Below, in pieces: positions 7,674 through 38,518 of a DNA stretch of 64,000 bases (within the stretch, counting starts at the first letter, position 1; every line of letters begins with the position of its first letter). The stretch is from assembly GCA_963677495.2 (NCBI GenBank), contig CAXXOU010000004.1:704001-768000 (forward strand), written 5' to 3'. Under the pieces are notes generated by a model, which ran no database searches, was not told where the DNA came from, and saw only the letters and a list, made by a program, of their open reading frames with translations. Origin of the DNA: Candidatus Cloacimonadales bacterium. Its GTDB lineage: Bacteria; Cloacimonadota; Cloacimonadia; Cloacimonadales; JAFGVF01. Both the position numbers and the translations under genes were made by a program.

Positions 7674-8081
7674 ACCTACTCCAAACTGTCTTGAAGTAGT
7701 CATTTTTAAAGGTTGGCAGTTTTGTACCACTTTTCACTGCCATCGTGTACCATTTCTCACTGCCATTGACAGTACAGAGGAAGATTACAGTTAGGTGATA
7801 GCCCATTAATTAAAGAGATTCCTATTGTACATTCCACTACTTAGGTGGTTTTGCCCAAAAGTGCCCGAAACTCATAGGGGGGGACAGAATGAGAGAGAAA
7901 TAGGGGAATATATTTTAGCTTCGCTGAAAATGGGGGTTTAGGGGTTATAGGGAACAATTTTTATTGGCGAGAAATAATCATAGAGGGACAAAATAACGGA
8001 GAAATTTGGAGATGTTTGGCGAAGTTTGGCAATTTAATGGCAATTAGCAATTTACAGCACTACCGGGACTCGGTTCTTATA

Positions 8082-8538
8082 CTTTAGGTCAAAATGATAG
8101 AGAAATAATAGGCGACATAGGCAACAGTGATAAGCGACACTAACGCTAAGTAATTAGAAAATAATACTTTAGATAGGCGACAATATAGGCAACATACACG
8201 CTTTAGGTCAAAATGGTAGAGAAATAATAGGCGACATAGGCGACAGCGATAAGCGACACTAACGCTAAATAATCAGAAAATAATACTTTAGATAGGCGAC
8301 AATATAGGCAACATACACGCTTTAGGTCAAAATGGTAGAGAAATAATAGGCGACATAGGCGACAATATAGGCGACACACACGCTTTAGGTCAAAATGGTA
8401 GAGAAATAATAGGCGACATAGGCGACAGCGATAAGCGACACTAACGCTAAATAATCAGAAAATAATACTTTAGATAGGCGACAATATAGGCGACACACAC
8501 GCTTTAGGTCAAAATGATAGAGAAATAATAGGCGACAC
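8082..8538. repeat. Tandem array of 119-bp units near the prophage left end
   Basis: Units start CTTTAGGTCAAAATG at 8082, 8201, 8320, 8383 and 8502 (spacing 119,119,63,119); about 19 TA(G/A)GC(G/A)ACA cores. Confidence 0.95.
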
Positions 8539-8552
8539 TATAACGGAACCTG

Positions 8553-9140
8553 CTATTCTATTCTGCCATGTCTCGCAGTTACCTCATATTGATAGCTACC
8601 TGATCCAGGTCTCCAAGAGTTGGAGTATCTATTTGCATCTATTGCCCAGACATGAACGCCAAAGTCAATCTCTTCATTTCCTCGTAGTGCTGCACCTTTG
8701 CATATTGTCTTAAAATCATTAGGGAACTGATTGAATCCAATGTATACATCATTGCCATCGACTGACACCCACTCTACTTCTTTTATGCTTTTTAAGTAGC
8801 TTATGGAACCTGATAAAGATTCCTTTCCGGTATTTGTCTTACTGGGGATGTTGATTGCACTGCTAACAAGCAGGATAAGTATTATACAGGTTGAGGATAC
8901 AGTGATAAGTTGTAGTTTTGAGTGTTTAGCACCACACTTAGAACAGGTGAATGTGAATATTGAATCATCACTATTATCGCACATCTTGCATTTGTTTTTT
9001 AGGAAGGGGAATGCAAATGAAAAACCTTTAACTTTCTTGGTTTCATCACCAGGTTCATCATATATAGAGGTTGTGTTGTCATAAGACTTATAAAGGAAAT
9101 AAAGAACACCTACTATGAGAATGATTAAAAACAGAGCCAT
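8553..9140 (-). CDS. Prophage membrane protein with CxxC..CxxC zinc-ribbon-like segment
   Basis: Two hydrophobic helices flanking CKMC..CSKC; directly downstream of cI with AGGAGG RBS. Confidence 0.7.
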   Translation of the reverse strand: MALFLIILIVGVLYFLYKSYDNTTSIYDEPGDETKKVKGFSFAFPFLKNKCKMCDNSDDSIFTFTCSKCGAKHSKLQLITVSSTCIILILLVSSAINIPSKTNTGKESLSGSISYLKSIKEVEWVSVDGNDVYIGFNQFPNDFKTICKGAALRGNEEIDFGVHVWAIDANRYSNSWRPGSGSYQYEVTARHGRIE

Positions 9141-9148
9141 GACACCTC

Positions 9149-9790
9149 CTACTTGAATGATCTAATTAAGTAATCCAACACTCCTATGATTCTGACATCC
9201 ATATTGTCATTGAGCTTGATTGGTTTGAATTTGAGGTTGAAAGGGAATAACCAGGCATTCTTACTTTCATGATCCAGGACAAACTTTTTGAGGGTGATAC
9301 CATCATCAATCCTAACTGCAACAACCCGGTTATCGTAGCAATCCTCTAAGCAATCCCGGTTGATGATCACAATATCATTATGCTGCACTACAGGTTTCAT
9401 ACTTGTACCATTAACCCGGAAAGCAACAAGACTCTCAACAGGCAAGGCACTGGAGACTTGAACAACACCAAGTTCATGGTCTATTGCTTCAAAAGGCTCC
9501 CCGGCTGAGATTTCAGCAGATATTGGGATTTCATTCATCTCGTGAGTTACCGGGAATGAAACTGTTGGCAATTCAGGAGAATTGAGAAGCATATTACCTT
9601 CTCCGGTTAGAAGCCAATGCAGGTTAACACTATATAGTTTACTGATTTTATGTAATAATGGCATATTGGGTTCTATGTTATTCTTCTCTAACCTACTGTA
9701 ATTGCCTTGATTTATCTCCAATACAGAAGAAATCTGCATTTGTGTAAGTCCTTGTGATAACCTTAGTTCCTTCAATCTTTTGCCAATCAT
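9149..9790 (-). CDS. CI-like phage repressor (XRE HTH + S24 peptidase)
   Basis: N-terminal HTH with NLHWLLTGEG; SAG cleavage site, VNGTSM serine, TLKK lysine. Confidence 0.9.
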   Translation of the reverse strand: MIGKRLKELRLSQGLTQMQISSVLEINQGNYSRLEKNNIEPNMPLLHKISKLYSVNLHWLLTGEGNMLLNSPELPTVSFPVTHEMNEIPISAEISAGEPFEAIDHELGVVQVSSALPVESLVAFRVNGTSMKPVVQHNDIVIINRDCLEDCYDNRVVAVRIDDGITLKKFVLDHESKNAWLFPFNLKFKPIKLNDNMDVRIIGVLDYLIRSFK

Positions 9791-9801
9791 TAAAACACCT
9801 T

Positions 9802-9921: not shown

Positions 9922-10116
9922 ATGAAGAATGGAGAAGCGAAAATTGAGAAAGATCATCCACTTGAGAAGCTTAGTGATAAGCTTTGTGCTCTTGTTAGTC
10001 ATTGCGATGGAGACTGCGGATGTTGCCCTGTCGGGATAAGCAACCTTGAGAAGAATATAGAAGATGCTGGTTATATACATCGAAGCAAGTTACAGACGGA
10101 GGCACTTGATGACTAA
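9922..10116 (+). CDS. Small Cys-rich early phage protein
   Basis: GAGGAGG RBS; HCDGDCGCCP. Confidence 0.6.
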   Translation: MKNGEAKIEKDHPLEKLSDKLCALVSHCDGDCGCCPVGISNLEKNIEDAGYIHRSKLQTEALDD

Positions 10117-10408
10117 AAGACAATTCAAATACACACCGGGACAGGTAAAGGCAGCTATTATGCTCCGAGAGGGAAAGTACTCACCTTCCTGGATTAGTTT
10201 TAAGCTACATGATCTCAGGATTGCCAAGGTTGGAGCACAGATGGTGAGTCAGGTGGTTAATGGTAACAGATTCAATTCTAAAGTTGTCGCTTGGATTGAG
10301 GAAGAGTTCGCAGATGAGTTAGCGGTTGTTAGTAAACAGGACGCAATTCCCCGAACTCCCGATGGTCGTAATGGTGACCGCTCCGATAGTGTTGGGGGTG
10401 CTGTATGA
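10109..10408 (+). CDS. Ner/Cro-like transcriptional regulator with repeat-derived C-terminal tail
   Basis: VKAAIMLR...MVSQVVNG HTH-like pattern; position opposite cI; GGAGG RBS. Confidence 0.55.
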   Translation: MTKRQFKYTPGQVKAAIMLREGKYSPSWISFKLHDLRIAKVGAQMVSQVVNGNRFNSKVVAWIEEEFADELAVVSKQDAIPRTPDGRNGDRSDSVGGAV

Positions 10409-10644
10409 TATATGCTTATGGTATCATTGCATTCTTACTGATTCTCTTAGTAAGAAGCTTACTGGTTGAGTTTAGGCTTCGAGGACGTTATCAAGATAAG
10501 ATTCTTGAGATTGAATCATATCGTCGTGAGATTTCACGAATCCAGCAGAAAGTCGAAAAGGCACATAGTGAGTTTATGGGTGGAAAACCTGTTACAAGCT
10601 TCTCTAGGTCATCGCAGATTAAGGCTAATGGTGGGGTGGAATGA
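10405..10644 (+). CDS. Small membrane-anchored phage protein
   Basis: N-terminal TM helix; ATGA overlap with neighbours. Confidence 0.6.
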   Translation: MIYAYGIIAFLLILLVRSLLVEFRLRGRYQDKILEIESYRREISRIQQKVEKAHSEFMGGKPVTSFSRSSQIKANGGVE

Positions 10645-10994
10645 TGAAGAAAAGAACCACCATTCCCAACATCATGGAATTACGAGAGGGGAATAACGAG
10701 CGAGACACTCATTCTACAGGTAAGACTAAGAAAGAACTGAATGTGAAGCGTGAGAAGATGAGCCTTCCTGAGTTTGTAGCAGCTATAAAAGCAACTACTA
10801 AGCTCAATGTTAAGTTTACTCAAAGGGGATTCGTTACCGGGTTCAGAGAGGTTGTTTATATTCAAGTGCATTATAATCCCATTGAGGGCATGTACAAAGT
10901 GTTTATGGCAGCCGGAGAGCATTACATCGAATGGAATCACAACATCATTTTTACTAATCAAATCAGAACAATATATTCCGGATGGAGGGGATAA
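10641..10994 (+). CDS. Hypothetical phage protein
   Basis: ORF coupled to both neighbours. Confidence 0.55.
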   Translation: MMKKRTTIPNIMELREGNNERDTHSTGKTKKELNVKREKMSLPEFVAAIKATTKLNVKFTQRGFVTGFREVVYIQVHYNPIEGMYKVFMAAGEHYIEWNHNIIFTNQIRTIYSGWRG

Positions 10995-11641
10995 TGGAAC
11001 AAGTAATAGTTAATAATGAACAAGCTATAGCTACAGAAGTATATAATCAGTTAAGAGAGAAAATAAGCACAACATGTTTAGCATCTGCAGATAGCTTAAG
11101 AATGCTACTCAATGGTTTAGGTTTTTATCATAAGAGTGAGTTTCCTGAAGCAAAAATTGAGTATTTCGAAGATCCAGGTTCAGGAGAATCAGTAGGTGTT
11201 CAGCTTGTTATTGATAATGGAAGACCATATACAGGGATTGGCAGTGACGTAGTGGACACAGTTGACGGTAGTGAACAAGAGAGTAATCCTTCAACTCAGA
11301 TCAGGAAGCCAATAGTTACAATTGATGATGAGGATATCTCAGATATGTTCTATCAACGACTTGCGATTTTGAAAGCCAATTTCGAAGTAAACCAATTAGA
11401 AGCTACAAGAGATCTAATCAAAAAAAAGGGGATATTCAAACCAGATTTCACTGTATTAGATTTCTATAGACTGAGCTCATCATCTGGTGGAGCTGCCTTA
11501 AACTTATTGAATATGGTCATTGGGGATTTGTTGGAAGACGCTGACTCAGTATCTACTTGCGAAGGTTACAATGAAGTGAACCTCCTTCCCGGTGAAGCAA
11601 ATAAGAAACAACCAAATAAAGATATATCGTCCCATCGATAA
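10994..11641 (+). CDS. Hypothetical acidic phage protein
   Basis: GGAGGGG RBS, TAATG overlap. Confidence 0.6.
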   Translation: MEQVIVNNEQAIATEVYNQLREKISTTCLASADSLRMLLNGLGFYHKSEFPEAKIEYFEDPGSGESVGVQLVIDNGRPYTGIGSDVVDTVDGSEQESNPSTQIRKPIVTIDDEDISDMFYQRLAILKANFEVNQLEATRDLIKKKGIFKPDFTVLDFYRLSSSSGGAALNLLNMVIGDLLEDADSVSTCEGYNEVNLLPGEANKKQPNKDISSHR

Positions 11642-11736: not shown

Positions 11737-14163
11737 ATGAAGATTTGGAAAAGCACTAAGGAAGCTGCTGAACTGATGAACACAACCGAAAGGACAATTC
11801 AAAGACGAGCTAAGTCCGGGATGCTTGAAAGCCGGGATGGATTGAGTTCGAAAGGACGGAAAAGGCTTGAGGTACTTGTTGAGGTTGATGATCAACCTCA
11901 ACAGCCTAAAGCTGATAGTCTAGAGCCTAAAGCTGAAGGGAACCACCCCGCCGTAAGTTGCTCGCTTCCAGCTTGCGAGCTCCCTGCGGTCGGTTCACGG
12001 CACCCCTCCACAGAGGGGAATCAGGAGCAACAGCCTATAGCTGATAGCCTAAAGCCTATAGTTGAGAACCAGGGAGATGCAGGCAGGGATGCCTGCGTAC
12101 GTAGCTCAAGCGAAGGTGGACAGGACGCATCTACACAGTTGATGCACTCCAAAGACAAGCAAGCTGTATGCCCTACGGAATCAGAGGACTTTGTTGGACG
12201 GGACGCAATTCCCCGAACTCCCGTTGGTCGTAATGGTGACCGCTTCGAAATAGCAACACCTGCTGAGAAGGATGAGGAGAAAGCTTTTAAGGAATGCTCT
12301 CAATCCGAGAGGGAGCAAGCTTGGGCAAAGCTTCAGATTGTGAAGCTCTGGAATGATTTCAGATCAGCTAAGAAGGTTGAAGGTATGTCTAAGACAGAAA
12401 GCTCTAAGTTCTGGGATTCTCGCAGTAGCATTCTTGCCGGGAAACAGCTTCAGGTACTTGGGATTCAGGAAATCAAGTCTAAGACCATCTATAAGTGGAG
12501 TAAGGAACTGAAGGAATCCGGGCATATCAATTATCCGGTTGCTTTGATTCCTAACAGGCACTCATCCGGTCGCAAGAGCAAGGTTCCTGATGAAGTACTC
12601 TTCAGGATTAGGCAATTAGCTGCAGATCCCAGAGAGTTGAGAGCAAGCCATATCTATAAGATTCTTCTTAGTGAACACCCGGATAGTTTCTCTTTCCCAT
12701 GCTCCAGAAGAACAGTTACAAGGTTCGTGGCACAGGCTCGTGCTGATAGAGTACTTGTCTCACTTGGTAAAGGCAAGAAGGCTTATAAGAACAATGTGAG
12801 AGTTCATATTAAGCGTGTCAATGACAACATACCCGGAAAGCACTATGTTGGTGATGGTCGTCCTCATGACTTTATGGTATACTCTCCTTGGAGACATCAT
12901 GCTTCTGAGAATCTAAGACTCTTAGTAAGACCTTACGCAACAATGTGGGTTGATGCTGCAACCGGGTTGATTGTTGGTTATACAGCAAGCTATTCAGAAT
13001 CTACTCACACAGTTCTTAACTCCTTATCCAGAGCAATAAAAGCATGGGGAGTGCCTGAACGAATCACTGTTGATAACGGAAAATCTTACCAGAATTACTA
13101 CAATGATCCGTACTACTTCCTGAACAATCGAAAAGAGAATTCATCTCCATGGAAAAAGGCAAAGGGCTTTATAGATCAAGGTCAAGTGGGAGCATATAGA
13201 AAGGTTGGTATTGAGAAGATAACCTACTCCATTCCCGGTAATCCTGAATCAAAGCAGATTGAAGCCATCTGGAACTACGTATTTGAGGACTTTGAACGTT
13301 CACAGGCTATCTATTTAGGTAAATCACCAGAAAAGCGAATGGAAGCCCTTAATATGCCCACAATCAAGCTAATTGAGAAGTATGGGGATATGATACCTAA
13401 TTGGGACGAGTTTATTCAACAGATCAATGCAAGGATTCAGGAATGGAATAGCTCCAAGCGTGCAGTTCTTAAAAGTGCTGATGGTAATATGATGAGTCCA
13501 TTAGAGGTGATGGAATACTTCAAAGATGAAATCCAGATACCTAATCCGGGTTTCATTGATGAGTGGTTATCTGTTCCGGTGGAAGCTAAGGTTCAAAGGG
13601 ATGGAATCTACTGTGCCGGGAACTGGTACCAGCACAGGCAAAGTAAAGTCCATCTTAATAAAAAGTGCTTAGTGTTGTTTGATGAAATGGCACCTGAGAC
13701 TGCTCAGATTATGACTGAGAATGGTCAACTTTGGGAGGGCTTAGCAGAGCTTTATGTTCCCGGATCATACGTTGAAGAGGAGCAGATTCAAAAAGCAATT
13801 AGTACAGCTCGAAGTCTTGAAAAACAGGGCTTAGCAGTCTATGCAGGTGTTCGCTCTCGTATACCAGGTAAGCTTGATCAGAAAGAGGTCAATAAGATAG
13901 CTAAGAATACCGTCCTTGAAATTGAGGGTGATGCACATAAGAGACGAGAACGAATCAAAGATACAGGGAAAGAACGTCTATCAATTCCAAAAAGAAGCAA
14001 ATCACCTGAAGGTTCCGGTGTTGAACCAACACCTGACTGGAAGGAACTATTAAAAGAGATTGAAGTACCGGAAACAGAAGTGCAACCGGAAGAACCAAAG
14101 AATACAGAAGAGGATGCAATCCTCGCTACAATTGAAGGTAAATCAAATTATAGGGGGCTTTAA
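11737..14163 (+). CDS. MuA-like DDE transposase
   Basis: N-terminal HTH (STKEAAELMNTTERTIQRRAK); YVGDG, TVDNGKSY and PGNPESKQIE catalytic motifs; C-terminal VQRDGI beta-barrel. Confidence 0.9.
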   Translation: MKIWKSTKEAAELMNTTERTIQRRAKSGMLESRDGLSSKGRKRLEVLVEVDDQPQQPKADSLEPKAEGNHPAVSCSLPACELPAVGSRHPSTEGNQEQQPIADSLKPIVENQGDAGRDACVRSSSEGGQDASTQLMHSKDKQAVCPTESEDFVGRDAIPRTPVGRNGDRFEIATPAEKDEEKAFKECSQSEREQAWAKLQIVKLWNDFRSAKKVEGMSKTESSKFWDSRSSILAGKQLQVLGIQEIKSKTIYKWSKELKESGHINYPVALIPNRHSSGRKSKVPDEVLFRIRQLAADPRELRASHIYKILLSEHPDSFSFPCSRRTVTRFVAQARADRVLVSLGKGKKAYKNNVRVHIKRVNDNIPGKHYVGDGRPHDFMVYSPWRHHASENLRLLVRPYATMWVDAATGLIVGYTASYSESTHTVLNSLSRAIKAWGVPERITVDNGKSYQNYYNDPYYFLNNRKENSSPWKKAKGFIDQGQVGAYRKVGIEKITYSIPGNPESKQIEAIWNYVFEDFERSQAIYLGKSPEKRMEALNMPTIKLIEKYGDMIPNWDEFIQQINARIQEWNSSKRAVLKSADGNMMSPLEVMEYFKDEIQIPNPGFIDEWLSVPVEAKVQRDGIYCAGNWYQHRQSKVHLNKKCLVLFDEMAPETAQIMTENGQLWEGLAELYVPGSYVEEEQIQKAISTARSLEKQGLAVYAGVRSRIPGKLDQKEVNKIAKNTVLEIEGDAHKRRERIKDTGKERLSIPKRSKSPEGSGVEPTPDWKELLKEIEVPETEVQPEEPKNTEEDAILATIEGKSNYRGL

Positions 14164-14166: not shown

Positions 14167-14862
14167 ATGAAGAGCAACGTAATAGTACCTATATTCAACA
14201 CAAGAGAAGCAGCAGCAAAAGTGAAAGAACTGCAAACAAGACCTAAGGCAGATGTTCCCGGGTTAGCCTGCATGTATGGTTGTCCCGGTCTTGGAAAGTC
14301 TTATTGGTCTGAGAGCTATGCATCACAGAACAATCACATTTGGATCAGAATGAAAGAAGCTGAAACAGCTAAGGGCTTTATGTCCAGATTGCTCAAACGC
14401 TTGGTGTATCGTGATGAAGGTCAAAACAGGAACATCTCAGGTTCAACAGATGAGATATACAAAGAGTGTGAGGAGATTCTTCAGCGTAATCCTGATTGGG
14501 TAGTGTTTATTGATGAAGTGGATAGAGCTCTTGGTGGTCGCAAAACTAAGGTTCTTGAGATGATTAGAGACCTTGCTGACTGTACTTATGCAAGCTATAT
14601 CCTGATTGGAATGGAGCATCTTCGCAGGTTAATCCAGAAGTACTCAGCTCATTATTTTGATAGATGTTACTTCTTCTATGAATTCAGACCTGCAACTTCT
14701 GAAGAGATGAAGGCGATTATAGAAGCAAAGATAGATTACAGTGCATCTGATAAGGTCGTTCAGGCAACGATGGAAAAGTCAGGTGGTACATTGCGAAAGA
14801 GTATCAAGCTCATGGTGGATATGGAGGAAGCTAGAAATGTCCGTAGAAACAGCCAAAAATAG
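14167..14862 (+). CDS. MuB-like AAA+ transposition ATPase
   Basis: GCPGLGKS Walker A, VFIDEVD Walker B, IRDLAD and ILIGM; follows the transposase. Confidence 0.9.
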   Translation: MKSNVIVPIFNTREAAAKVKELQTRPKADVPGLACMYGCPGLGKSYWSESYASQNNHIWIRMKEAETAKGFMSRLLKRLVYRDEGQNRNISGSTDEIYKECEEILQRNPDWVVFIDEVDRALGGRKTKVLEMIRDLADCTYASYILIGMEHLRRLIQKYSAHYFDRCYFFYEFRPATSEEMKAIIEAKIDYSASDKVVQATMEKSGGTLRKSIKLMVDMEEARNVRRNSQK

Positions 14863-15274
14863 ACTCAGAGACTTCGCTGTGATGAATGAAACTCCCTTCA
14901 CAATCTCCAGAGCTGCATTAGTTACCGGATACAGTATGTCCTGTGTATCCAGGAACCTTGCTGTTCTTAAGAAAGAGGGGTTTGTGCGTGAAATCGAAAC
15001 CGGAACAAGATTCAAGTCCTTTGTAGTAGAGAAAGAGATTCTACCTAAGAAAATGGAGCAGTTAACGGAACGTGTGTTCACTGAGATCCAGAATCAGAAT
15101 TTTGTAAGTAAAGAGATAGCTGAAAAGCTTAAGTGCAGTGTGGATAGAGTTTATAGGTGCCTTAAAGTACTTGAGCGTAGAGGAAGGGTAGAGGTTATCG
15201 TTAAGAAGAATGGCAAGATTACTGTGGCAAGACTTCCTAAGTATGATGCCATCCCGGAGGTAAGTAATGTCTAA
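14837..15274 (+). CDS. Tandem winged-HTH DNA-binding protein
   Basis: Two HTH-like segments (SCVSRNLAVLKKEG; EIAEKLKCSVDRVYRCLKVLERRG). Confidence 0.7.
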   Translation: MSVETAKNRLRDFAVMNETPFTISRAALVTGYSMSCVSRNLAVLKKEGFVREIETGTRFKSFVVEKEILPKKMEQLTERVFTEIQNQNFVSKEIAEKLKCSVDRVYRCLKVLERRGRVEVIVKKNGKITVARLPKYDAIPEVSNV

Positions 15275-15608
15275 CGTAGTTAAGGACGTACTCCAGAAGG
15301 CTATTGATACCAGGCAACGCAAGTTGGATAAGATAATTGAAGAGCAAGAGCATGATTGGTTCGAAGATATGAAGGCTGAGAGAGAGCGATATAATGAGTA
15401 TGTAAAGAAGTTCAACTCAAGCACCGTAGAGCAAAAACTGGAGCTAATAGATGAGGTCTTAAAGCAAAATCAAATCACTCAGAAAGCATATCAACTATGG
15501 ATCAAAGATAGAGGTTATCTCTGGGATAAACGTGCTGTGATTGAGAAAGAGGTTAGCAAACTAAAAAATGCTTTATATATACTTACACACAGAGGTTACC
15601 ATGAATAA
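15267..15608 (+). CDS. Hypothetical phage protein
   Basis: GGAGG RBS, coupled ORF. Confidence 0.6.
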   Translation: MSNVVKDVLQKAIDTRQRKLDKIIEEQEHDWFEDMKAERERYNEYVKKFNSSTVEQKLELIDEVLKQNQITQKAYQLWIKDRGYLWDKRAVIEKEVSKLKNALYILTHRGYHE

Positions 15609-15972
15609 AGAACAATATGCTAAGAATCTCCGTAGTAGGATAGTAGCAAATATAAAGCACAATTTCAATGTAGATCACCATGAGTTACTGGAGGAGTGGG
15701 GATACGGTTCCTCACTCCGGAAAATTCGGGATATAGATGTCCTGAAGGAGATCCTCTTTGTGGCTCAAGGTGGAACAATTCAAAGTCAGAGCATAGGCTC
15801 TCTGGATGAGCAGGGACGCTATGCGTGGGCTCTTATGAAAGAAGCAGGTTGGGATACTCGCAGATTGAGATCCCTGATGATCAAGAAGTGTGGTGTTGGT
15901 ACTTGGAAGCAACTCTCTACTTCAGAGAAAAAGCAAGTGATACAGATACTGAAGAGCTATCAGCAGAGCTGA
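15601..15972 (+). CDS. GemA/gp16-like (DUF1018-like) protein
   Basis: C-terminal LRSLMIKKCGV..WKQLS..EKKQVIQILK resembles Mu GemA; typical position. Confidence 0.55.
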   Translation: MNKEQYAKNLRSRIVANIKHNFNVDHHELLEEWGYGSSLRKIRDIDVLKEILFVAQGGTIQSQSIGSLDEQGRYAWALMKEAGWDTRRLRSLMIKKCGVGTWKQLSTSEKKQVIQILKSYQQS

Positions 15973-17509: not shown

Positions 17510-17510
17510 T

Positions 17511-18248: not shown

Positions 18249-18249
18249 A

Positions 18250-30208: not shown

Positions 30209-31719
30209 TGGCATTAAAGTGGACTAAAGTACAAAAACTTAAACTTGAAGAAATAGCTGGTAAAACTCCAGAAGTCTTACCTTTTGAAGCAGATACACCT
30301 GCTAAGAAAAAGAGACGTAAAAAAACTTCTGCTAAGCCTAGTTGGGAAGGCTTTAGTTTCTTTTGTAAAACATACTTTAGCAACGTCTTCACTAACGAGT
30401 TTAACGGTGATCATAAAGAAGCGTTTGAATATGTTGAAGGTAATGTCCATGGTATTACAGCTATAACCGGATATAGGGGACTTGGAAAAACCACTGAGTT
30501 TGCATTTGCTTATGTCATTTGGAGACTCGCTACACAAGGTGATCAGTTCAATTTGAATATTGCTGCTGATAGGGATCTCGCTGATGCAAGAACAGCAGCT
30601 ATTCATTATGCGTTAAACAACAATGTTAGAATCAAGAATGACTATCCAGAAATGATTCCTCTTAATGATGACACTAAGAACTATTCCTTAGGGAATAAGG
30701 CACTTATAAAGGCTCAGGGTATAAAAAAGAATGCAAAGGGTGCTAAGAATTATAAGACTCAGAAAAGAGTAGATTTACTGATTTATGACGATGTGGATGA
30801 TGAAGATAACCAGGGGAACAGAACTGTAGGCTTCAAGAAAATGAATAAAATCAAGGGTGATGGGTTTGGAGCCCTAATTCCCAAAGGTGGAAGAGTAATT
30901 TGGCTTGGGAATGAAACACACCCAAACTTTGCCATTGCACAGTATGCAGCTGATATAAATAAAAAGCAAAAGACAGGGCATTTGATTAAAGGATATCAAA
31001 TTTTTCTAAGATATTCAATCGAAGATGAGAATGGTAATAGCAGATGGCAAGAACAGTATTCCAATGAGGATTTAGCAGCAATTAGAGAAATCATGGGTTA
31101 TACTGTATATTGTCGAGAGATGCTAGGAAAGCCAATCATTGAAGGCTCTGTTTTCAAGGCAGAATGGTTTACGTATTGGGAGAAGTTACCAAAGAAATTC
31201 AAGTGCGTCTGGATGTATGCTGATCCATCGTGGGGTGAGAAGGGTTGCTATAAGGCAATAGTCATTATTGGGCTTGGTTATGATGGTAAATATTATATGA
31301 TAGATTGCTGGGTTAGACAAACTAGCAACACTGTCTTCTACACTGAGTTCATTGAGTTATTCTACAAAGTTAAAAAGATGGGTGGTAGGACAGCTATGGA
31401 GACAGTCTTTGGTCAACATAGACATCTGAAAGACATGGATGATTACTGTGAAGAGATGGGTATGTTGCCTATATCACACTGGATAAAGCATATTAATACA
31501 AAAGAAGATAAGAGTATGAGGATAGAACGGCTTGAAACGTCTATTGAACGTGGAAAACTATTATTTTGTCACCATGGTGATATAACAACTTTAGAAGGGC
31601 AGTTCCTTTCTTATCCTGATGGGTATTTGGATGGACCAGATGCAACAGCAGGAGCAATGGAAAGATTCCCAAAATACACAAGAAGAAGACCAGCAAGAGT
31701 TCGAAGACTCAATTACTAG
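30208..31719 (+). CDS. Terminase large subunit
   Basis: YRGLGKTT Walker A, LIYDD Walker B, YADPS and DGPDA nuclease motifs. Confidence 0.9.
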   Translation: MALKWTKVQKLKLEEIAGKTPEVLPFEADTPAKKKRRKKTSAKPSWEGFSFFCKTYFSNVFTNEFNGDHKEAFEYVEGNVHGITAITGYRGLGKTTEFAFAYVIWRLATQGDQFNLNIAADRDLADARTAAIHYALNNNVRIKNDYPEMIPLNDDTKNYSLGNKALIKAQGIKKNAKGAKNYKTQKRVDLLIYDDVDDEDNQGNRTVGFKKMNKIKGDGFGALIPKGGRVIWLGNETHPNFAIAQYAADINKKQKTGHLIKGYQIFLRYSIEDENGNSRWQEQYSNEDLAAIREIMGYTVYCREMLGKPIIEGSVFKAEWFTYWEKLPKKFKCVWMYADPSWGEKGCYKAIVIIGLGYDGKYYMIDCWVRQTSNTVFYTEFIELFYKVKKMGGRTAMETVFGQHRHLKDMDDYCEEMGMLPISHWIKHINTKEDKSMRIERLETSIERGKLLFCHHGDITTLEGQFLSYPDGYLDGPDATAGAMERFPKYTRRRPARVRRLNY

Positions 31720-31727: not shown

Positions 31728-32051
31728 ATGAGAGTTTATACTAACCTAAACACTTTAAAGAAGGTTAAGCACTTGTTGAAACAATTAGATTTAGGGCATC
31801 TATTAGATGGTGGAGAACCTAATCCCAATACAACAGTATCCGGGATACTCGATAAGCTACTGGATGAAGGCTTAATGGAAGAGTTCATGCAGACAATCAC
31901 AAGAGATAATCAGACAGACTTTGCAGAAATGGAGCTGGTTGAGATGAAGGAGGTGATCTCAAATTTTTTGTCAGGTATCATCGAATTCTTGCCCGAATCT
32001 GCACAAAAGATTCTAATTCCAGAAGCAAGTCAAGAGCCAAGCGAACGGTAG
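31728..32051 (+). CDS. Tail assembly chaperone (gpG-like); -1 frameshift product extends to 32197
   Basis: Precedes the tape measure gene; slippery A AAT TTT at 31961-31967; -1 frame open to TAG 32195-32197. Confidence 0.75.
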   Translation: MRVYTNLNTLKKVKHLLKQLDLGHLLDGGEPNPNTTVSGILDKLLDEGLMEEFMQTITRDNQTDFAEMELVEMKEVISNFLSGIIEFLPESAQKILIPEASQEPSER

Positions 32052-32185
32052 AGAATAGCGATGTATTCCTGGACTACTATTACACACTTAAAAGAGCAAA
32101 TCTCTGGGATAAAGACCTTGAACTTGATGAGGCTGTATACTTGCTTAAAAAGCTTAAAAAAGAGAATGAGGAGATTGAAAAGAAC

Positions 32186-32332
32186 TCAACCAAGTAGTTC
32201 GTCAATTATATCCTTTTTACTACGTTTAGGTGGGTGTTTAAGTCGTTCATTAATAGAAAGAATGGTACCACAAACAATTGCTGAAATAGCAATGAAAGCA
32301 AGTAGTGTGATAACAGTAAATATAATATTCAT
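32186..32332 (-). CDS. 48-aa single-TM moron protein not in ORF track
   Basis: MNIIFTVITLLAFIAISAIVCGTILSINERLKHPPKRSKKDIIDELLG with GAGG RBS. Confidence 0.55.
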   Translation of the reverse strand: MNIIFTVITLLAFIAISAIVCGTILSINERLKHPPKRSKKDIIDELLG

Positions 32333-32370
32333 TTTAAAACCTCAGTTAAAGATTGAAGGAGCTGTATAAG

Positions 32371-35109
32371 ATGTCAAGTAAATTAAACATGGTTATGCAA
32401 TTAGACATCAAGCAGGTGCTTGAAAGACTTAAGCGTGTTGACAGCAAGATTAAAGATGTGTTTGGCATTGTTAGCAAGCCATTAAAGCTTAATGCGGACG
32501 GCTCTGAAGTAGAGCAAGCCTTAGACAACATATCAGCTAAAGTAGATGGAATTGAAGATATCGAAATAGATGCTGATGGTAGCGATGCTGTTGATGAAGC
32601 AGGAGAAGTTGCCGGGGCAATGGATGAAATTCCAGACAATAAGAATATTAAAATTAATACTGAGGGCACAGAGAATAGTGTGCAGGAACTTACAAGGGTG
32701 GGAGTGGCAATTTTTGCCATATCTAACTCTTACAATATGGTCAAAAGCAAGATAGCAGGATATTTAGAATTGTCTAATAGACAAGAGCTATCAGAGGTTT
32801 CACTTACTTCTGCACTGAAAGCCAGAGGATTGGCTAGTCAGCAGAATATTGATTCAATGATTAAGCTGGCACAACGAACTCAGGCTGTTACAATGATTGG
32901 GGATGAAGCATCAATTGAGATGCTTGCTCTTGCAACATCAAGCGGAGTGGCATTTGATAAAATGGAGGAAACTCTAACAGGAGCTATTGGTCTTTCAACT
33001 GCCTTTGAAAAAGCAGGACTAAGCCAGGAAATGGCAATGAAGGGGTTAGCACTTGCTTATGAAGGTGAGTTCACTCAGCTAAACAGGTATATTCCGGCTC
33101 TAAGGACAGCAACAACTGATACTGAGAAGATGGCAATCCTTCAAGAAGCAATGGCTAATGGTTTTGAGATGGCAAAAGATCAGGCAAAATCTCAAGCAGG
33201 TCAATTAGCCCAAACCGGGAATCTGCTATCTGATCTAGGTGATAAGATTGGGGATGTATTGAAGTCATACCTTAAGCCACTAAATGTTGTTTTGAAGGGC
33301 ATAGCACAGTGGCTCAATGATTATCCTAGCTTATTCCGGGGATTGGTGGCGGCTTTTACAGCCATGGTGACAGTGACGAGTCTTTTACTATCTAAAACTA
33401 TTGCCTTGAATGCCGCAAAAGCGGTTGGGGCTGCTCTGTCCGGGAATTGGATTGCTTTGGCTGCAGCCGCTGCTGTTGGAGTAGGAGCTTGGGCTGCGAG
33501 TAGTTCTGCACTGAAGGGGAATATAGACGAGCTCAATGAGTCTGTAGAAGAAGCAACCAATTCGACACAGCAATACCAGAATCAACTTGATAGAATGAAT
33601 ACTCAACAAGTGAAGAGTGCAGTGACGGATCTTAAACAAGAATATGAAGATCTTAAGTTGGAACTTGAGGAGCTAAAAAAACATGATCCAGGGAGAACAC
33701 TTTCAGATAACCATGAAAGGCTTGAAAAGGCTATATACGAAGCCAAGAAGAAGTACAGGGTAGCTCGTAGTAAATTGATTGTATTGGAGAATAAAGATGA
33801 GCAATCAAGACTTGAAATCCAAGAGGACTTTGTGCTTAGAAAAACTGAGTTAGATAATCAGGCTTCATTATCAAATGAAAGATTGCTGGAACGCCAACTA
33901 GAGCTTGCCCGACTGAGTTATGAAGATATGAAGGTTGTTGATCAGCAAACTATGAATGCTAAGCTTGGGCAATACCAGAAGATTATGGATTTAGAAAAGC
34001 AACTAAAGGCTTTTAGAGAGCAAGAAGATGCTACCGAGTTAGCTGAGCAAGCACAGAAACTATCTCAATCCAAGGCTGAGATAGTGGAGTATTACTCTAA
34101 TCTTAAAGAGCTTGGGATTATTAATTATGAGGAGATGAAAAACAAGCTTCAAGAGTATTTAGAGAAAGTAAAGAGCGTCTATGGTGAGGAAAGCGAGATT
34201 TATAAAGAAGAGAAGAAAGAGATAACCAGATTGGAGCAAAACACCAACCTTAGAATGTATGAAGATAGGATTTCTTTACAATTAAAGGTGCATACTGAGC
34301 TATTGGAAGCTGATGGTAAGTATCACGAATCTAAGCTTCTTCTGTTTGAAGCAAGCTGGGAAAAGGAGAAGGCTGCACTTATCGCTGCTAAGGTATCTGA
34401 AGAGGAAATTGAGAAGCTTTACGCAGAAAGGAAGCTTGCGATAACAAGCAAGATGACTAAGGCTCAAAGCCAGGCATATAATGTGTTTCATGCCGGGATA
34501 ATGGAGATGTTTGGTGACATTGCCAGAATCGAAGTTGAGACCAATAACACGCTGATCAAGGGCTTTGTTGCAATGGCTAATACCTTTATTGCTCAAGTTC
34601 AGAGAATGATTGCTCAATGGCTCGCTTTTCAGGCAGTGAAGAAGCTTGGTGCAACCTTGGGTTTCAATATATTAGGTAGTGTTCTTGGCTTTGGTAACGG
34701 TGGTCAGGTTCCTATTATGGCAGATGGTGGATTGCTTTATGGTGCCAGTCACTCTGAAGGTGGAATTCCACTTGTTGCTGAAGGAGGTGAGTATATCATT
34801 AATACTTCGTCAACAGCTATGTTTAAGCCATTATTAGATCTGATTAATTTTGCACCAAAGGTTGCAATGGATATGTTCAAGGGTTTGTCCGGATTTAGGA
34901 TCCCTACAGCAAGCAGCTATAACCTGGCATATTCCGGAGCAAATGGAGCCGGAATGGAAGAGCTTGTTGGGGAAGTTAGAGCTTTGCGTGCTGAGGTGAG
35001 AAATAAGCAAATTTCCGGAGTATTTAGCATGAGGGATGATAGAAGCTCATACAATAGATATAAGTGCTTCCTTGTTGATAAAAAGAGCTATGAGGAGCAA
35101 GCAAAGTGA
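32371..35109 (+). CDS. Tail tape measure protein
   Basis: 912-aa helical protein with central hydrophobic Ala-rich segment and C-terminal G.SHSEGG...AEGGEYIIN; AGGAG RBS before 32371. Confidence 0.9.
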   Translation: MSSKLNMVMQLDIKQVLERLKRVDSKIKDVFGIVSKPLKLNADGSEVEQALDNISAKVDGIEDIEIDADGSDAVDEAGEVAGAMDEIPDNKNIKINTEGTENSVQELTRVGVAIFAISNSYNMVKSKIAGYLELSNRQELSEVSLTSALKARGLASQQNIDSMIKLAQRTQAVTMIGDEASIEMLALATSSGVAFDKMEETLTGAIGLSTAFEKAGLSQEMAMKGLALAYEGEFTQLNRYIPALRTATTDTEKMAILQEAMANGFEMAKDQAKSQAGQLAQTGNLLSDLGDKIGDVLKSYLKPLNVVLKGIAQWLNDYPSLFRGLVAAFTAMVTVTSLLLSKTIALNAAKAVGAALSGNWIALAAAAAVGVGAWAASSSALKGNIDELNESVEEATNSTQQYQNQLDRMNTQQVKSAVTDLKQEYEDLKLELEELKKHDPGRTLSDNHERLEKAIYEAKKKYRVARSKLIVLENKDEQSRLEIQEDFVLRKTELDNQASLSNERLLERQLELARLSYEDMKVVDQQTMNAKLGQYQKIMDLEKQLKAFREQEDATELAEQAQKLSQSKAEIVEYYSNLKELGIINYEEMKNKLQEYLEKVKSVYGEESEIYKEEKKEITRLEQNTNLRMYEDRISLQLKVHTELLEADGKYHESKLLLFEASWEKEKAALIAAKVSEEEIEKLYAERKLAITSKMTKAQSQAYNVFHAGIMEMFGDIARIEVETNNTLIKGFVAMANTFIAQVQRMIAQWLAFQAVKKLGATLGFNILGSVLGFGNGGQVPIMADGGLLYGASHSEGGIPLVAEGGEYIINTSSTAMFKPLLDLINFAPKVAMDMFKGLSGFRIPTASSYNLAYSGANGAGMEELVGEVRALRAEVRNKQISGVFSMRDDRSSYNRYKCFLVDKKSYEEQAK

Positions 35110-36188
35110 AGAGTAATGCAGTATTAAGGTTTGAATGGCAAGAAAGCCCCGGGACTGCGATAAATGGGATTGTGGTTAATGGGTTTCTTTCTGAGATCCC
35201 CGAGTTTGTCTCCCGGATTGAGCTTGATACATCTATCATCACTTTGGAAAGTGCTTCTTTAGTCTTTCAATACACTCCTTCAGAACAGTTAGCTCAGGGA
35301 GAATACAGGACTTGGTGCTTAGTGCTTGAAGCTTATTTGATTACTCAGAAGGTTGTGAGTATTGAGGTTATGATCAATGGGATAAGTGAGTATACCGGGA
35401 TACCTGATTATGGTACTATTGGTGAGGATTATGTTGATCATACGCTTAGCATTGATGTAGGCTCTGAAGCAGGAGCTTTGCTTGATCAGGAGATTGAAGC
35501 CGGGACTGAGATTTGGACTTATCTTACTGCTCTGACCCAGAATCTTACACCTTTGAAGGGTATGTTTACTCATATCCTGAATACATACTTACCGGAATAC
35601 ATGATTCAGTTTAATCTTGATGAGAGTATGGTTATCTATCACCCAGATCAGATTGAAGATAGTCATGCATATAGGATATGGATAAACTCCACAACTACTG
35701 TATCAAGCCTGCTGAAGCAGATACTTTACTTAACCGGGTGCAAGCTTAGGTTTGTGAGAGTTGGTGGAATGAGACAAGTGATGATCTCCAATATAATGCA
35801 TGGCTCAGAGAACCCGGTCATTGATATCCAGAAAGCTGCATTGCCTAGAAAGAATTCTGATTATCTGGCTGAGTTTGATGATCCCGGAGCTAATGTTGCT
35901 GTGTCTTTATTTTACATTGCTCTAGGTGGATTACCCGGTGAGTCAGTGTTTAATGTAGGTTTAGGTTTCTTTGCTTCAGGATGGGTGCAATGGTATGATA
36001 ATCTGAAGAAGATGTCACATAAAGAAAGATACTTGTTAGAAGGGGCTGGGCAATACGCAAAAGCAGGGGAACACGTGCGTGTTCATGGGACTACCTACTA
36101 TGTACTCGAATCAGTGAGAAAGCCTAAATTTAGCCCGGGAAATCAACCGTTAGAGATGATATTACTGAAGGGAGTGTGGAATGCTTAG
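35106..36188 (+). CDS. Putative tail/baseplate hub protein
   Basis: Follows the tape measure gene with GTGA overlap; context. Confidence 0.55.
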   Translation: MKSNAVLRFEWQESPGTAINGIVVNGFLSEIPEFVSRIELDTSIITLESASLVFQYTPSEQLAQGEYRTWCLVLEAYLITQKVVSIEVMINGISEYTGIPDYGTIGEDYVDHTLSIDVGSEAGALLDQEIEAGTEIWTYLTALTQNLTPLKGMFTHILNTYLPEYMIQFNLDESMVIYHPDQIEDSHAYRIWINSTTTVSSLLKQILYLTGCKLRFVRVGGMRQVMISNIMHGSENPVIDIQKAALPRKNSDYLAEFDDPGANVAVSLFYIALGGLPGESVFNVGLGFFASGWVQWYDNLKKMSHKERYLLEGAGQYAKAGEHVRVHGTTYYVLESVRKPKFSPGNQPLEMILLKGVWNA

Positions 36189-36672
36189 TTTATACAAATT
36201 TTCTGGAGATGCTGCTAATCCAGTGATCAAGATTTATGAAGACTATACTATGAATGTGAAGCAGAGTGCTCCTCATTATAAGTATAAGCAGAATAATCCA
36301 TTGAATCCGGCTGAGGTTTGGACAATTGGTAAGTACTTTGTGAAGCAGGGGAAGGCTTCTATTATACTTGATACTCAGGGGTATGATGAGCTTGTTACCT
36401 TTCTAGAGGGAGTTGATAGTGCTTCTTATGATGATTTAACCGGGTTATGGATACAGTATACTCACGGCACTGGAGCTAAGGTGCTACATGTGACTAATCT
36501 GGTGTCTGTACCCCAAGAAATAGATGATATACACTACGATGCCTGTGTTTGGGCTGAGATAGAATTTGATTGTGTTTACAATGATGGAGTCCCTCCGACA
36601 TTACCTCTTGAATCCTTCTGGGGAGCAGGAAGCTGGGGTGCCGGAAGCTGGGGATTTACTGCTAATGAATAG
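36181..36672 (+). CDS. Putative distal tail protein
   Basis: Context; C-terminal WGAGSWGAGSWG. Confidence 0.5.
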   Translation: MLSLYKFSGDAANPVIKIYEDYTMNVKQSAPHYKYKQNNPLNPAEVWTIGKYFVKQGKASIILDTQGYDELVTFLEGVDSASYDDLTGLWIQYTHGTGAKVLHVTNLVSVPQEIDDIHYDACVWAEIEFDCVYNDGVPPTLPLESFWGAGSWGAGSWGFTANE

Positions 36673-36677
36673 AGGAG

Positions 36678-37460
36678 ATGATTATGGGAACTCAATTTAA
36701 TACACCCCCGGCATTGAATACACCGGGAACACAATACGCTGCTGATGTAAATAGCCTTTTAACAGCTATAACCGGAGCTATTAATGCTCTGGAAGCGGGG
36801 ACACCTTTAAATACTGTTTTTGCTGCTCTGAATCATACACATGCTTATGTGCCTACATCACATACCGATAACTCAGGCATAAAGCATACTACTGAGAGAA
36901 TATCCAGTCAGTTAGGTGGGGAATCACATCCTAACCTTGAGTTGTTACTTGCTTTGATGGTGGGAACTACTCAATTAACCGGACTTAAGTCTTTAGACGA
37001 CCTGACAAAGCACATTGCAGGCACTTCTAACAAGCACATGGCAAGTAAGATTGACTATGATGAAAACAACACAGTGGAAGAGATGATTGCTTTGCTTCAG
37101 CAAGGCATGTTAGGGCAATATTCAGTGCATAGACAGGTGGGGTTTGAGTTTACTCCAACTGCAGCTACAAAGTCGGTTTCTGAAGCTGATTTGCTTGCTT
37201 TACACCCGGAGATGGATGCAGGTCCTGAACACATTAATCCAAACTGTATTGTGCAGCTTTATAAGATTGATGACACGAGTGGGAAACGTACTCCGTCCGG
37301 TGTTGCTGAACCTGTTGAGATGAGTACCCCAGTTGATGGTGGTTCGATCACTCATATAAAACAGGTTGATTGCTCTTCTCTTACTGCAGGTAAGAATTAT
37401 GTGCTTGTGGTTGGATTCAGAAAAGCATCGGTTACACCTTCAGGAGGATCTCAGACTTAA
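36678..37460 (+). CDS. Putative tail fibre protein
   Basis: FAALNHTH and H....SNKH.ASKI fibre-like His motifs. Confidence 0.55.
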   Translation: MIMGTQFNTPPALNTPGTQYAADVNSLLTAITGAINALEAGTPLNTVFAALNHTHAYVPTSHTDNSGIKHTTERISSQLGGESHPNLELLLALMVGTTQLTGLKSLDDLTKHIAGTSNKHMASKIDYDENNTVEEMIALLQQGMLGQYSVHRQVGFEFTPTAATKSVSEADLLALHPEMDAGPEHINPNCIVQLYKIDDTSGKRTPSGVAEPVEMSTPVDGGSITHIKQVDCSSLTAGKNYVLVVGFRKASVTPSGGSQT

Positions 37461-37533
37461 TTTTCGCTAATTAGAAACACGTAAGACATGCTGGCAGAGT
37501 CCAGCATGATTACTATATATATGGGAGATAAAC

Positions 37534-38280
37534 ATGGACGCAATGATACCATGGATTGGCGGAAAAAGATTACTTAGAAAAACTATTTCAGAGATGATAC
37601 CGGGAGATATCACAACCTACATTGAGCCTTTTGGTGGTGCAGGATGGGTTATGTTCTACAAGGACAGATGGGCAAAGCATGAGGTATATAACGACCTTAA
37701 TGGAGACCTGACTAACCTGTTTAAGTATGTGAAATATCATCCGGATTCATTGGTTGCTGAACTTGATTTCTTCGTACATTCAAGAGAATTGTTTAAGGAC
37801 ATTAAAGTCAATCCCGGTATAACTGAGCTGCAGAGAGCAGCCCGGTTTATGTGGTTAACTTGCTTCAGCTTTGGAGCAAAAGGTGAGAGTGTTGCAACGT
37901 CGAAATTAGGGGAATCCAGGTCACTGCAGAATCGCTTTAAGAAGATAAGAGATCTGCACGATCGATTGGATAGAGTAATGATTGAAAATCTGGACTATAG
38001 AGAGCTGTTTAATCGGTATGATCAGCCCGGAGCATTCTTCTATACTGATCCTCCATATTTCCATGGGGTGAAGTATGATAATGCTAAGAACTTTGACCAT
38101 GAAGAGCTTAGGGATATGCTCTTTAAACTCAAAGGGAGATGGTTGCTTTCCTATGATGATTGTCCTGAGATTAGGGAACTGTATGCCGGATGTAAGATAG
38201 TGGGAGTTACCCGACAGAAAGGCATAAACAGGAAACTGGGAGACATGGAATACAAAGAGGTGATTATTATGCCAGGATAA
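37534..38280 (+). CDS. DNA adenine methyltransferase (Dam/D12 class) at the prophage right end
   Basis: WIGGK, YIEPFGGAG, NDLNG and YTDPPY motifs. Confidence 0.95.
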   Translation: MDAMIPWIGGKRLLRKTISEMIPGDITTYIEPFGGAGWVMFYKDRWAKHEVYNDLNGDLTNLFKYVKYHPDSLVAELDFFVHSRELFKDIKVNPGITELQRAARFMWLTCFSFGAKGESVATSKLGESRSLQNRFKKIRDLHDRLDRVMIENLDYRELFNRYDQPGAFFYTDPPYFHGVKYDNAKNFDHEELRDMLFKLKGRWLLSYDDCPEIRELYAGCKIVGVTRQKGINRKLGDMEYKEVIIMPG

Positions 38281-38380
38281 AAGAATTGACACCTATATAT
38301 AAGGATATAGGGTTTGTGTGTAATTGGACTTGCTCCAATTAAACCTAGGTTCCCCCTGCTTGCTACAGACGGCAGGGGGA

Positions 38381-38518
38381 TTTCTCTATTATTTTGGCTT
38401 GAAAATTCTCCGTTATTTTGGCACACTTTTTCTCTACCATTTGTCTCATTTTCTTAATACTGGATAATTTCTCTGACATTTTGGCACGTTTCTCTGACAT
38501 TTTGGCGGGGGTTATGAG
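38381..38518 (-). repeat. Five putative transposase-binding sites at the prophage right end
   Basis: TTTCTCNNNNATTTTGGC-type copies at 38381, 38406, 38429, 38468 and 38489, inverted relative to the left-end copies. Confidence 0.8.

Follow-up and report, generated by a model that had tools for sequence, protein, structure and literature searches.

We identified a prophage in a 64,000-nucleotide stretch of the Candidatus Cloacimonadales bacterium assembly GCA_963677495.2 (contig CAXXOU010000004.1, positions 704,001 to 768,000; this whole stretch is referred to as the window), which is most probably a Mu-type transposable prophage with a non-contractile tail. The element combines Mu-like replication with a lambda-type siphophage tail, occupies positions 7875-38514 of the window (30,640 bp) and is apparently a structurally complete-looking prophage. 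It is inserted in an intergenic region of a Cloacimonadota chromosome, upstream of the genes mraZ-rsmH-ftsL and a penicillin-binding protein (PBP) gene, and has a GC content of 0.40-0.44 compared to 0.31-0.39 in the flanks. Open reading frames (ORFs) were listed, and 50 of them, including 46 in the element, were scanned against Pfam and PHROGs; Pfam or NCBIfam matches described below as below cut-off (GemA-like, DUF6712, PIN and TIGR01540) are weak matches only. A first-pass annotation made from the sequence alone had placed a transposable phage at 7871..38518, and the Pfam and PHROGs matches agree with the gene content and gene order that it described. Its size of about 30.6 kb was borne out, with each end shifted inward by 4 bases. 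The Pfam scan detected no integrase-family recombinase and no reverse transcriptase family among the 46 element ORFs. In the searches made, the element is the first transposable siphophage found for Cloacimonadota, and sequence comparisons point to one branch of a so far undescribed group of transposable siphophages that is common in uncultured Cloacimonadota.

The ends of the element and the genes on which the Mu-type assignment is based are the following:

7875..8540, left ('A-type') end, with the terminal TAGGGGGGGACA, seven direct copies of AAAATNNNAGAGAAA (7886-8525) and a tandem array (8082-8537)
9149..9790, minus strand, CI/LexA-type repressor with helix-turn-helix (HTH) and S24 autopeptidase domains (PF00717, 4.6e-18; HTH_19, 1.5e-10; phrog_4, 2.4e-35)
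11737..14163, plus strand, MuA-like DDE transposase of 808 amino acids (aa) (phrog_310, 1.2e-68, residues 1-798)
14167..14862, plus strand, MuB-like AAA+ transposition ATPase (phrog_296, 1.6e-25; AAA_22/TniB; BLASTP to Mu B, E 5e-7)
15568..15972, plus strand, GemA-like protein, weak (PF06252, E 1.2e-3, below cut-off)
16468..17109, plus strand, DUF3164 protein (PF11363, 5.8e-42; phrog_846, 1.2e-51), of a family that accompanies Mu-like early regions
37534..38280, plus strand, D12-class N6-adenine DNA methyltransferase (PF02086, 2.5e-27; phrog_56, 1.9e-74; MTase_II/orphan methyltransferase in PADLOC)
38281..38514, right ('B-type') end, with four inverted copies of AAAATNNNAGAGAAA (38381-38503) and the terminal ...GGCGGGGGTTA

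The MuA-like protein can be aligned by BLASTP with Mu A (NC_000929; E 3e-7). In this alignment D373 in a GDG motif and D446 in a VDN motif are placed opposite Mu residues 269 and 336, which we take to be two of the three catalytic residues of Mu A, and glutamates 504, 509 and 517 of the MuA-like protein are invariant among six relatives. The gene is present as a single copy in the genome, and the MuB-like gene begins 4 bases past its end. The Mu-type replication set that had been proposed earlier (MuA, MuB, DUF3164 and a terminal methylase) was thus recovered with the matches listed above. The GemA-like gene is kept at this position in the relatives (47-52% identity in the same-family genome G006 and the IMG/VR contig G232); the family match itself is weak.

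When the window was scanned for AAAATNNNAGAGAAA on both strands with at most one mismatch, seven plus-strand sites were found at the left end, four minus-strand sites at the right end and a single site elsewhere in the 64 kb. The total of 12 compares to 2.3 expected, and none of 100 shuffled sequences reached 12. AAAATNNNAGAGAAA is therefore regarded as a putative transposase-binding site of about 15-18 bp, and the inverted multi-site layout at both ends resembles the Mu pattern. The tandem array at 8082-8537, which contains five of the seven left sites, is made up of repeats with a period of 119 (2.4 copies, 96% matches) and 182 (2.0 copies, 97% matches). By analogy, this array could be an enhancer/operator region like that of Mu. 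The array is located between the left terminus and the repressor-side genes, shows periods of 63, 119 and 182, and contains repeated ATAGGCGACA-like words.

The termini were placed by homology of the ends to those of relatives. G006 and G232 show 80-91% DNA identity, and the region of similarity ends with TAACTAACCCCAGCC... next to the tail genes and with ...TGTCCCCCCTTA at the opposite side; the metagenome contig L057 has the same ...TGTCCCCCCTTA terminus. The TAGGGGGGGACA terminus of the window is common to the MuF-side ends of G006, G232 and L057, and the right terminus (GGCGGGGGTTA) resembles the TAACTAACCCCAGCC tail-side ends of G006 and G232. From these matching motifs, the termini were set at 7875 and 38514. 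The window, G006, G232 and L057 have unrelated flanking DNA and share the terminal motifs. G232 is 33,060 bp long and stops 12 and 29 bases beyond its two termini; a break just outside the termini is expected if the flanks are heterogeneous, although this is only suggestive. The 93 bases to the left of 7875 were considered as the relic of an older phage end and rejected, as the match extends over 10 bases only (E 0.17).

The genes that define the virion, and the two early/middle genes whose placement departs from that in Mu, are:

17081..17509, plus strand, M15 peptidase, putative endolysin (PF08291, 3.9e-18; phrog_894 endolysin, 6.6e-33)
19054-20382, plus strand, MuF-like minor head protein of 442 aa (PF04233, 9.8e-7; phrog_115, 5.8e-15)
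within 19054..20627, plus strand, conserved ORF of 87 aa after MuF, which together with MuF forms the last pair of the early/middle arm; both are kept in G006, G232 and L057
22198..23548, plus strand, three pre-portal genes of 161, 152 and 137 aa, conserved in G006, G232, G004, G015 and G119 (DUF6712, 6e-5, below cut-off)
23545..24732, plus strand, portal (PF04860, 2.3e-14; phrog_12, 3.7e-18; PBSX-type TIGR01540, 4.3e-21, below cut-off)
24873..26891, plus strand, predicted fusion protein of 672 aa: XkdF-type protease (about 1-175), coiled coil (about 180-250), HK97-fold capsid (about 300-570) and Ig-like domain (about 575-665)
27503..28033, plus strand, tail tube, non-contractile type (AlphaFold2 model and Foldseek)
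29519..29740, plus strand, conserved ORF of 73 aa with a C-terminal hydrophobic segment (homology, hydropathy)
29741-30208, plus strand, small terminase subunit (TerS) of 155 aa (PF10668, 2.2e-7, noted for the TerS-TerL pair)
30208-31719, plus strand, large terminase subunit (TerL) of 503 aa (phrog_38, 1.3e-54)
31728..32369, plus strand, two small ORFs of 107 and 102 aa in the tail-assembly-chaperone position; in G001 and G004, homologues are found ahead of the tape measure gene
32353..35109, plus strand, tape measure of 918 aa (phrog_339, 8.7e-11; 32-40% identity to the counterparts in G006, G001, G004 and G096)

An AlphaFold2 model of the tube protein (22 homologues; mean predicted local distance difference test score, pLDDT, 74) was compared to known structures with Foldseek. 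The top match was lambda gpV (E 1.2e-4, probability 1.00, template modelling score 0.45-0.51), followed by other siphophage tubes. A PDB sequence-profile search with the tube protein gave no significant match, and a homologous-protein search returned only the tube protein itself. Across the 3.4-Mb genome, nothing matched the sheath family PF04984 at E ≤ 0.1, in a search whose control was positive in four of 14 known genomes. Since the tube fold best matches lambda gpV and no sheath family is present in the genome, the tail is assigned to the siphovirus type, and a non-contractile tail, as had been suggested from the apparent lack of sheath genes, is well supported.

The 672-aa product contains the XkdF protease that had been noted earlier (PF14550, 5.7e-22) and an Ig-like domain (IG_AIR9, 1.1e-6). 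Foldseek comparison of its AlphaFold2 model (20 homologues; pLDDT 63) to the PDB retrieved phi29 gp8 (E 1.8e-9) as well as the capsids of P4, HK97, T5 and a gene transfer agent (GTA). A PDB sequence-profile search retrieved coiled-coil proteins only, none of them significant. Because of the capsid fold match, the Pfam matches for protease and Ig domain and the coiled-coil stretch, the protein is modelled as a one-polypeptide fusion of protease, scaffold-like coil, capsid and Ig domain. The PBSX/P2-like portal annotated before was recovered as a portal, with a PBSX-type match below cut-off. Conserved genes do precede the portal where neck genes had been described, and they are presumed to encode head-tail joining proteins; the neck label itself was not confirmed by PDB profile searches, which were not significant (best match lambda gpU, E 1.1).

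The gene order of the late block recurs in relatives. G006 and G232 contain the same gene set as the window at approximately 27-56% protein identity, and their late blocks have the window order of pre-portal genes, portal, capsid fusion, tube, small ORF, TerS, TerL and tape measure. The 7.6-kb contig of G096, which belongs to another family, carries the order capsid, tube, small ORF, TerS, TerL, chaperone and tape measure. The placement of the terminase genes after capsid and tube and before the tail-chaperone position (29741..31719), pointed out in the first-pass annotation, is therefore a conserved trait of the sublineage and not an assembly error. Misassembly had been named as a possible objection, and no sign of it was seen: the late order is repeated in the three relatives, and short-read contigs from four runs bridge the right junction. 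The endolysin and MuF genes are indeed located in the early/middle arm (17081-17509 and 19054-20382).

Compared to the window, G006 and G232 have the repressor-plus-early arm inverted with respect to the late arm. The TGTCCCCCCTTA terminus adjoins the MuF end of this arm in G006, G232 and L057, and its repressor end in the window. At the flanks of the early arm no inverted repeats above chance were detected, and the Pfam scan revealed no invertase gene. A programmed inversion was rejected for these reasons, and the flip is read as an evolutionary inversion. Because the arms are co-directional in the outgroups, the orientation in the window is probably the older one. Judged from gene order, TerS-TerL in this branch appear to have been relocated to a place behind the capsid and tube genes, and the endolysin gene to the early arm; module order is unusually fluid in the Mu-like prophage group of this Cloacimonadota class.

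Three more distant prophages from the same host class (G004, G015 and G119) share MuB, the GemA-like and DUF3164 genes, TerS, TerL, MuF, the three pre-portal genes, portal, fused protease-capsid, tube and tape measure with the element at 30-57% identity. They differ in that TerS-TerL are located directly upstream of MuF as in Mu, with the head genes following. The endolysin gene of G015 and G119 is found just before the pre-portal genes, and their capsid proteins are without the C-terminal Ig domain, which is present in that of G004. G015 and G119 also resemble the element in carrying reverse-strand cargo between MuF and the pre-portal genes.

Comparison to 50,697 deposited phage records showed how distant described phages are from the element. 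The MuA-like protein matched 104 records, with identities of at most 24.4% among the matches listed and none of these covering 80% of the query. For TerL, 39 records matched, the best at approximately 26-29% identity and the best coverage being 86% at 25.8% identity; 21 of the 39 are Bacteroides phages. The capsid fusion matched 26 records, and the 15 listed all fall within the protease part (residues 17-195), with none in the capsid part. No described phage among these records clusters with the element, in line with the earlier proposal of a distinct lineage. A search of 5.8 billion proteins with MuA retrieved three relatives besides the protein itself (43, 39 and 22% identity), and among 1.84 billion representative proteins 33 matched at E ≤ 1e-30, the closest at 49%. 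The single-sequence MuA query gave no match in viral or genome contigs, and the relatives were found by alignment queries.

With phage Mu, the element shares a leftward repressor at one end followed by a rightward early operon of A and then B, a GemA-like gene, MuF and a separate portal, a DNA-modification gene at the right end, and arrays of transposase sites at each terminus; both MuA and MuB can be aligned with their Mu counterparts by BLASTP. The contractile tail (sheath gp L and baseplate), the invertible G segment and Mom are found in Mu only. The Mu order lys-TerS-TerL-portal-MuF-protease-capsid-neck-sheath-tube contrasts with an early endolysin, a MuF split from the portal by cargo and TerS-TerL after the tube in the element. 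Mu gp28 and the TerL of the element are not alignable (E 4.5), and unlike in Mu, protease, scaffold-like coil and capsid form one polypeptide. The element is also smaller than Mu, as stated earlier (30,640 bp compared to 36,717 bp). Because it has neither the contractile tail nor the gene order of Mu, the element lies outside the genus Muvirus.

Rearranged transposable siphophages are already known, and the nearest named analogue is hankyphage p00 of Bacteroides (BK010646.1). This phage is likewise transposable; it encodes MuA/MuB and a tape measure, and no sheath is annotated in it. Its head and packaging genes are also rearranged, with MuF-portal-TerL-TerS on the opposite strand, and an N6 methyltransferase is its last gene. 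The hankyphage TerL, with 24% identity to that of the element over the full length (E 4e-16; range 24-27%), is among its closest named relatives. Hankyphage p00 was not among the matches listed for MuA. Hankyphage p00 differs in its size (42.8 kb), a diversity-generating retroelement with reverse transcriptase, separate ClpP protease and capsid genes, and a different module order. Lacking such a retroelement and being only distantly related in sequence, the element is placed outside the hankyphage group. RcapMu of Proteobacteria has in common with the element Mu-type replication and a long non-contractile tail, and its transposase A is a weak match (21.9% identity over 57% of MuA). Transposable siphophages of Proteobacteria, which also include the B3/D3112-type phages, have a Mu-like order of packaging and head genes, and in sequence they are very distant from the element. 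No Pseudomonas phage was present among the 104 records matched by MuA.

Mu-like prophages are not restricted to the window in this host class. A MuA match was found in eight of the 12 genomes of the host family, the window's own included. Of the 232 class genomes, 57 carry DUF3164, with a maximum of nine loci in one genome; 25 of the 66 genera are represented. The gene was found in none of 14 control genomes. Mu-like prophages are therefore common in the class. At E ≤ 1e-10, 59 of the 232 genomes have a match to the capsid fusion. Many matches are confined to its Ig or its protease part, and nearly the full length is matched at 44 places. A DUF3164 gene lies within 25 kb on the same contig at 29 of these 44 places, and the other 15 are mostly on short contigs. 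A full-text search of the literature library retrieved no publication pairing Cloacimonadota with Mu-like phages, and the passages available on Cloacimon* and prophages mention no transposable phage. Mu-like prophages reportedly occur in Firmicutes, a statement attributed to Toussaint 2013 in passages of a preprint on Negativicutes phages. With respect to copy number, G005 contains another Mu-like lineage at four loci (C1:3622, C1:1371489, C2:6442 and C2:311183) with identical DUF3164 scores, out of seven DUF3164 loci in total, and G037 has nine DUF3164 loci. These multi-copy loci suggest recent transposition bursts in relatives of the host.

From the gene content, the following life cycle is proposed. 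The S24/HTH repressor would silence the rightward early operon. Upon induction, the MuA-like transposase would bind the arrays of sites at the ends and, together with the MuB-like ATPase, copy the genome by replicative transposition. TerS and TerL would then package DNA by a headful mechanism from integrated copies. The head would consist of portal, MuF and the protease-scaffold-capsid-Ig fusion, and the tail of the lambda-V-like tube assembled on the 918-aa tape measure. The terminal Dam-type methylase probably modifies phage DNA, and a lysis route would presumably involve the putative endolysin. That the window copy is still mobile is held with much less confidence than the assignment of the element to Mu-type transposable prophages with a tail of the non-contractile kind.

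Sequencing contigs were available from four runs of one sample in one study, possibly the source of the assembly, covering the region 26001-45000; no RNA data were listed among the runs holding the sequence. The contigs extend from 26913 to past 45000 at a single depth and are unbroken at 38514. From its end at 26936, a Logan contig of 8,246 bases would reach back to approximately 18690, across MuF, cargo and portal. The fixed junction at one depth and the lack of loose ends give no sign of induction or of variable ends; the read data contain nothing for induction and nothing against competence. At 26907-26942, just past the capsid gene, the contigs of all four runs end at a 31-base word which has 2-5 times the surrounding depth and other neighbours elsewhere; this word is common to other elements in the community.

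Several observations weigh against an intact and active Mu-type prophage in the window. The third catalytic residue (a glutamate) of the MuA-like protein falls outside the BLASTP alignment with Mu A. No 5-bp target-site duplication, a defining feature of Mu-type transposable phages, was found (flanks ACTCA and TGAGA in the window, AAAGT and CCTCT in G006), with the termini, placed from homology, possibly being offset. The termini read TA...TTA, and Mu termini are TG...CA. No loose ends or joints at 38514 were reported in the contigs of the single sample. The tail-tip module measures only 2.35 kb, no receptor-binding protein was recognised and no holin was identified, so that the prophage may be defective. 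G011, a genome of the same genus, has an orthologous spacer of 807 bp between the homologue of the host gene at 4349-5266 (orf305) and mraZ, and this spacer contains a 263-bp piece (L054 1108-1369) which is 85% identical to window positions 22159-22419, the start of the first pre-portal gene. The host DNA beside this piece is 75-83% identical to the window flanks. The remnant suggests a long residence at the site rather than a recent insertion, and is explained either by a closely related prophage at this site in the common ancestor or by a site that was hit twice. If such a prophage was present in the common ancestor, the window copy would be an old but fully open prophage. The G011 spacer could not serve as an empty site, since it is too diverged to define the target, and its gapped alignment to the right end of the phage is weak.

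These points bear on the possibility that the window copy is a grounded and perhaps domesticated descendant, vertically inherited at the site upstream of mraZ from before the separation of the two species of the genus, an explanation that we consider possible but on the unlikely side. The G011 remnant at the same locus, the lack of a visible target-site duplication, the fixed junction with uniform depth (in a single sample), the short and unshared tail-tip module and an IS21 element that settled about 100 bp from the left end all speak for it. Yet all 46 scanned element ORFs are open and the core genes match those of relatives over their full length, which is unexpected after neutral decay at approximately 20% divergence; both end arrays are intact, and a closely related phage that inserted separately could equally have left the G011 remnant. 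A farther-reaching combination is, in our judgement, improbable: here arm order and orientation would be unfixed in the lineage, the terminase pair would have jumped the head genes, and the copy would have resided at the mraZ site since before the species split, inherited vertically and selectively maintained, either domesticated or still active. Unfixed arm order and orientation would, if true, be unusual for transposable phages.

An assembly chimera, or a Mu/Tn552-like transposon beside an ordinary siphophage remnant, would account for the orientation of the early arm being unique to the window (the MuF end adjoins the A-type terminus in G006, G232 and L057), and the contig check spans only 26001-45000. 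Against this, G006 and G232 carry both the early and the late gene set within the same two termini, the late order is also present in G096, one Logan contig would span approximately 18690-26936 and another runs from 26913 to past 45000, MuA is single-copy in the genome and inverted repeats of the early arm are at chance level; we regard this explanation as very improbable. Equally little credit is given to a phage-derived particle producer of the GTA-like or tailocin-like kind. The small size of the element, its minimal tail tip, the lack of a recognisable lysis cassette beyond one peptidase and the possibly long residence at one locus would fit such a system. A GTA or tailocin would not need the repressor, MuA/MuB and the two end arrays that have been kept, TerS/TerL and the full head module exclude a tailocin, and relatives are multi-copy, with up to nine DUF3164 loci in G037 and seven in G005.

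Cloacimonadota are abundant uncultured fermenters of anaerobic digesters. With DUF3164 in a quarter of the species genomes of the class, transposable phages may rank among the main causes of insertions and rearrangements in this phylum. With a relocated terminase pair, an inverted arm, a fixed cargo slot and protease, scaffold and capsid in one polypeptide, the group provides a natural series of module rearrangements that bears on which gene orders a Mu-type life cycle requires. We know of no genetic tool for Cloacimonadota, and the ends of the element together with its transposase could become one.

The remaining features of the element and its flanks are:

4349-5266, host gene of the left flank, followed by an IS21 element
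8553..9140, minus strand, ORF of 195 aa with two hydrophobic segments (N-terminus hydrophobic); no family and no homologue in the fetched relatives
10064..11641, plus strand, four small early ORFs of 114, 79, 117 and 219 aa; no Pfam, PHROGs or NCBIfam family
14741..15274, plus strand, winged-helix DNA-binding protein (TrmB, 1.6e-7, and other winged-HTH families)
17418..19063, plus strand, DUF2786/DUF7168 protein, Phg_2220_C protein and small HTH_17 protein (Pfam, PHROGs)
20690..22000, minus strand, cargo pair of a weakly PIN-like protein of 182 aa (PIN, E 5.5e-4, below cut-off) and a protein of 246 aa; no PADLOC match
26958..27494, plus strand, ORF of 178 aa with a hydrophobic N-terminus, absent from the fetched relatives
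28162..29518, plus strand, three ORFs of 102, 274 and 74 aa; no homologue in the fetched relatives (phrog_28256, unknown function, 4.4e-7)
35106..37460, plus strand, three putative tail-tip ORFs of 360, 163 and 260 aa; none or only weak homologues in the fetched relatives
from 38785, mraZ of the right flank, followed by rsmH, ftsL and a PASTA-containing PBP gene

For the ORFs without a family, NCBIfam and PADLOC added nothing. Between 5000 and 40000 no Rfam family reached its gathering score and no tRNA was found. A hydropathy scan gave no convincing holin candidate, and none was found via Pfam or PHROGs. The products of 8553-9140 and 26958-27494 may be membrane morons that act, for instance, in superinfection exclusion, and the small HTH_17 protein is a possible late activator. 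Fibre genes had been annotated between the tube and TerS; window-specific ORFs do exist there, but with no homologues in the fetched relatives the fibre label was not confirmed. In the tail-tip module, the language-model features of 35106-36188 resemble viral tail-protein clusters (score 0.97, a lead only), and those of 36678-37460 do so weakly (0.80). The two ORFs in the chaperone position (31728-32369) are in the same frame and separated by one stop and 9 bases, which differs from the usual -1 frameshift layout.

The cargo pair occupies the same slot between MuF and the pre-portal genes as the reverse-strand cargo of relatives. This cargo measures 8-9 kb in G015 (L043 3513-12519) and G119 (L045 5184-12824) and includes helicases, DNA methyltransferases, an SbcC-like ATPase, epimerase/sugar-modifying enzymes and a tRNA-methyltransferase-like gene; it looks like a slot for a defence or accessory island. 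The IS21 element next to the prophage extends from approximately 5412 to 7772 with istA (6198-7730) and istB (5465-6196), both on the minus strand, and is flanked by the direct repeat GTACAGAGG. It has tandem 23-bp terminal repeats at 7723-7766, lies about 100 bp from the left end of the prophage and is an independent later insertion.

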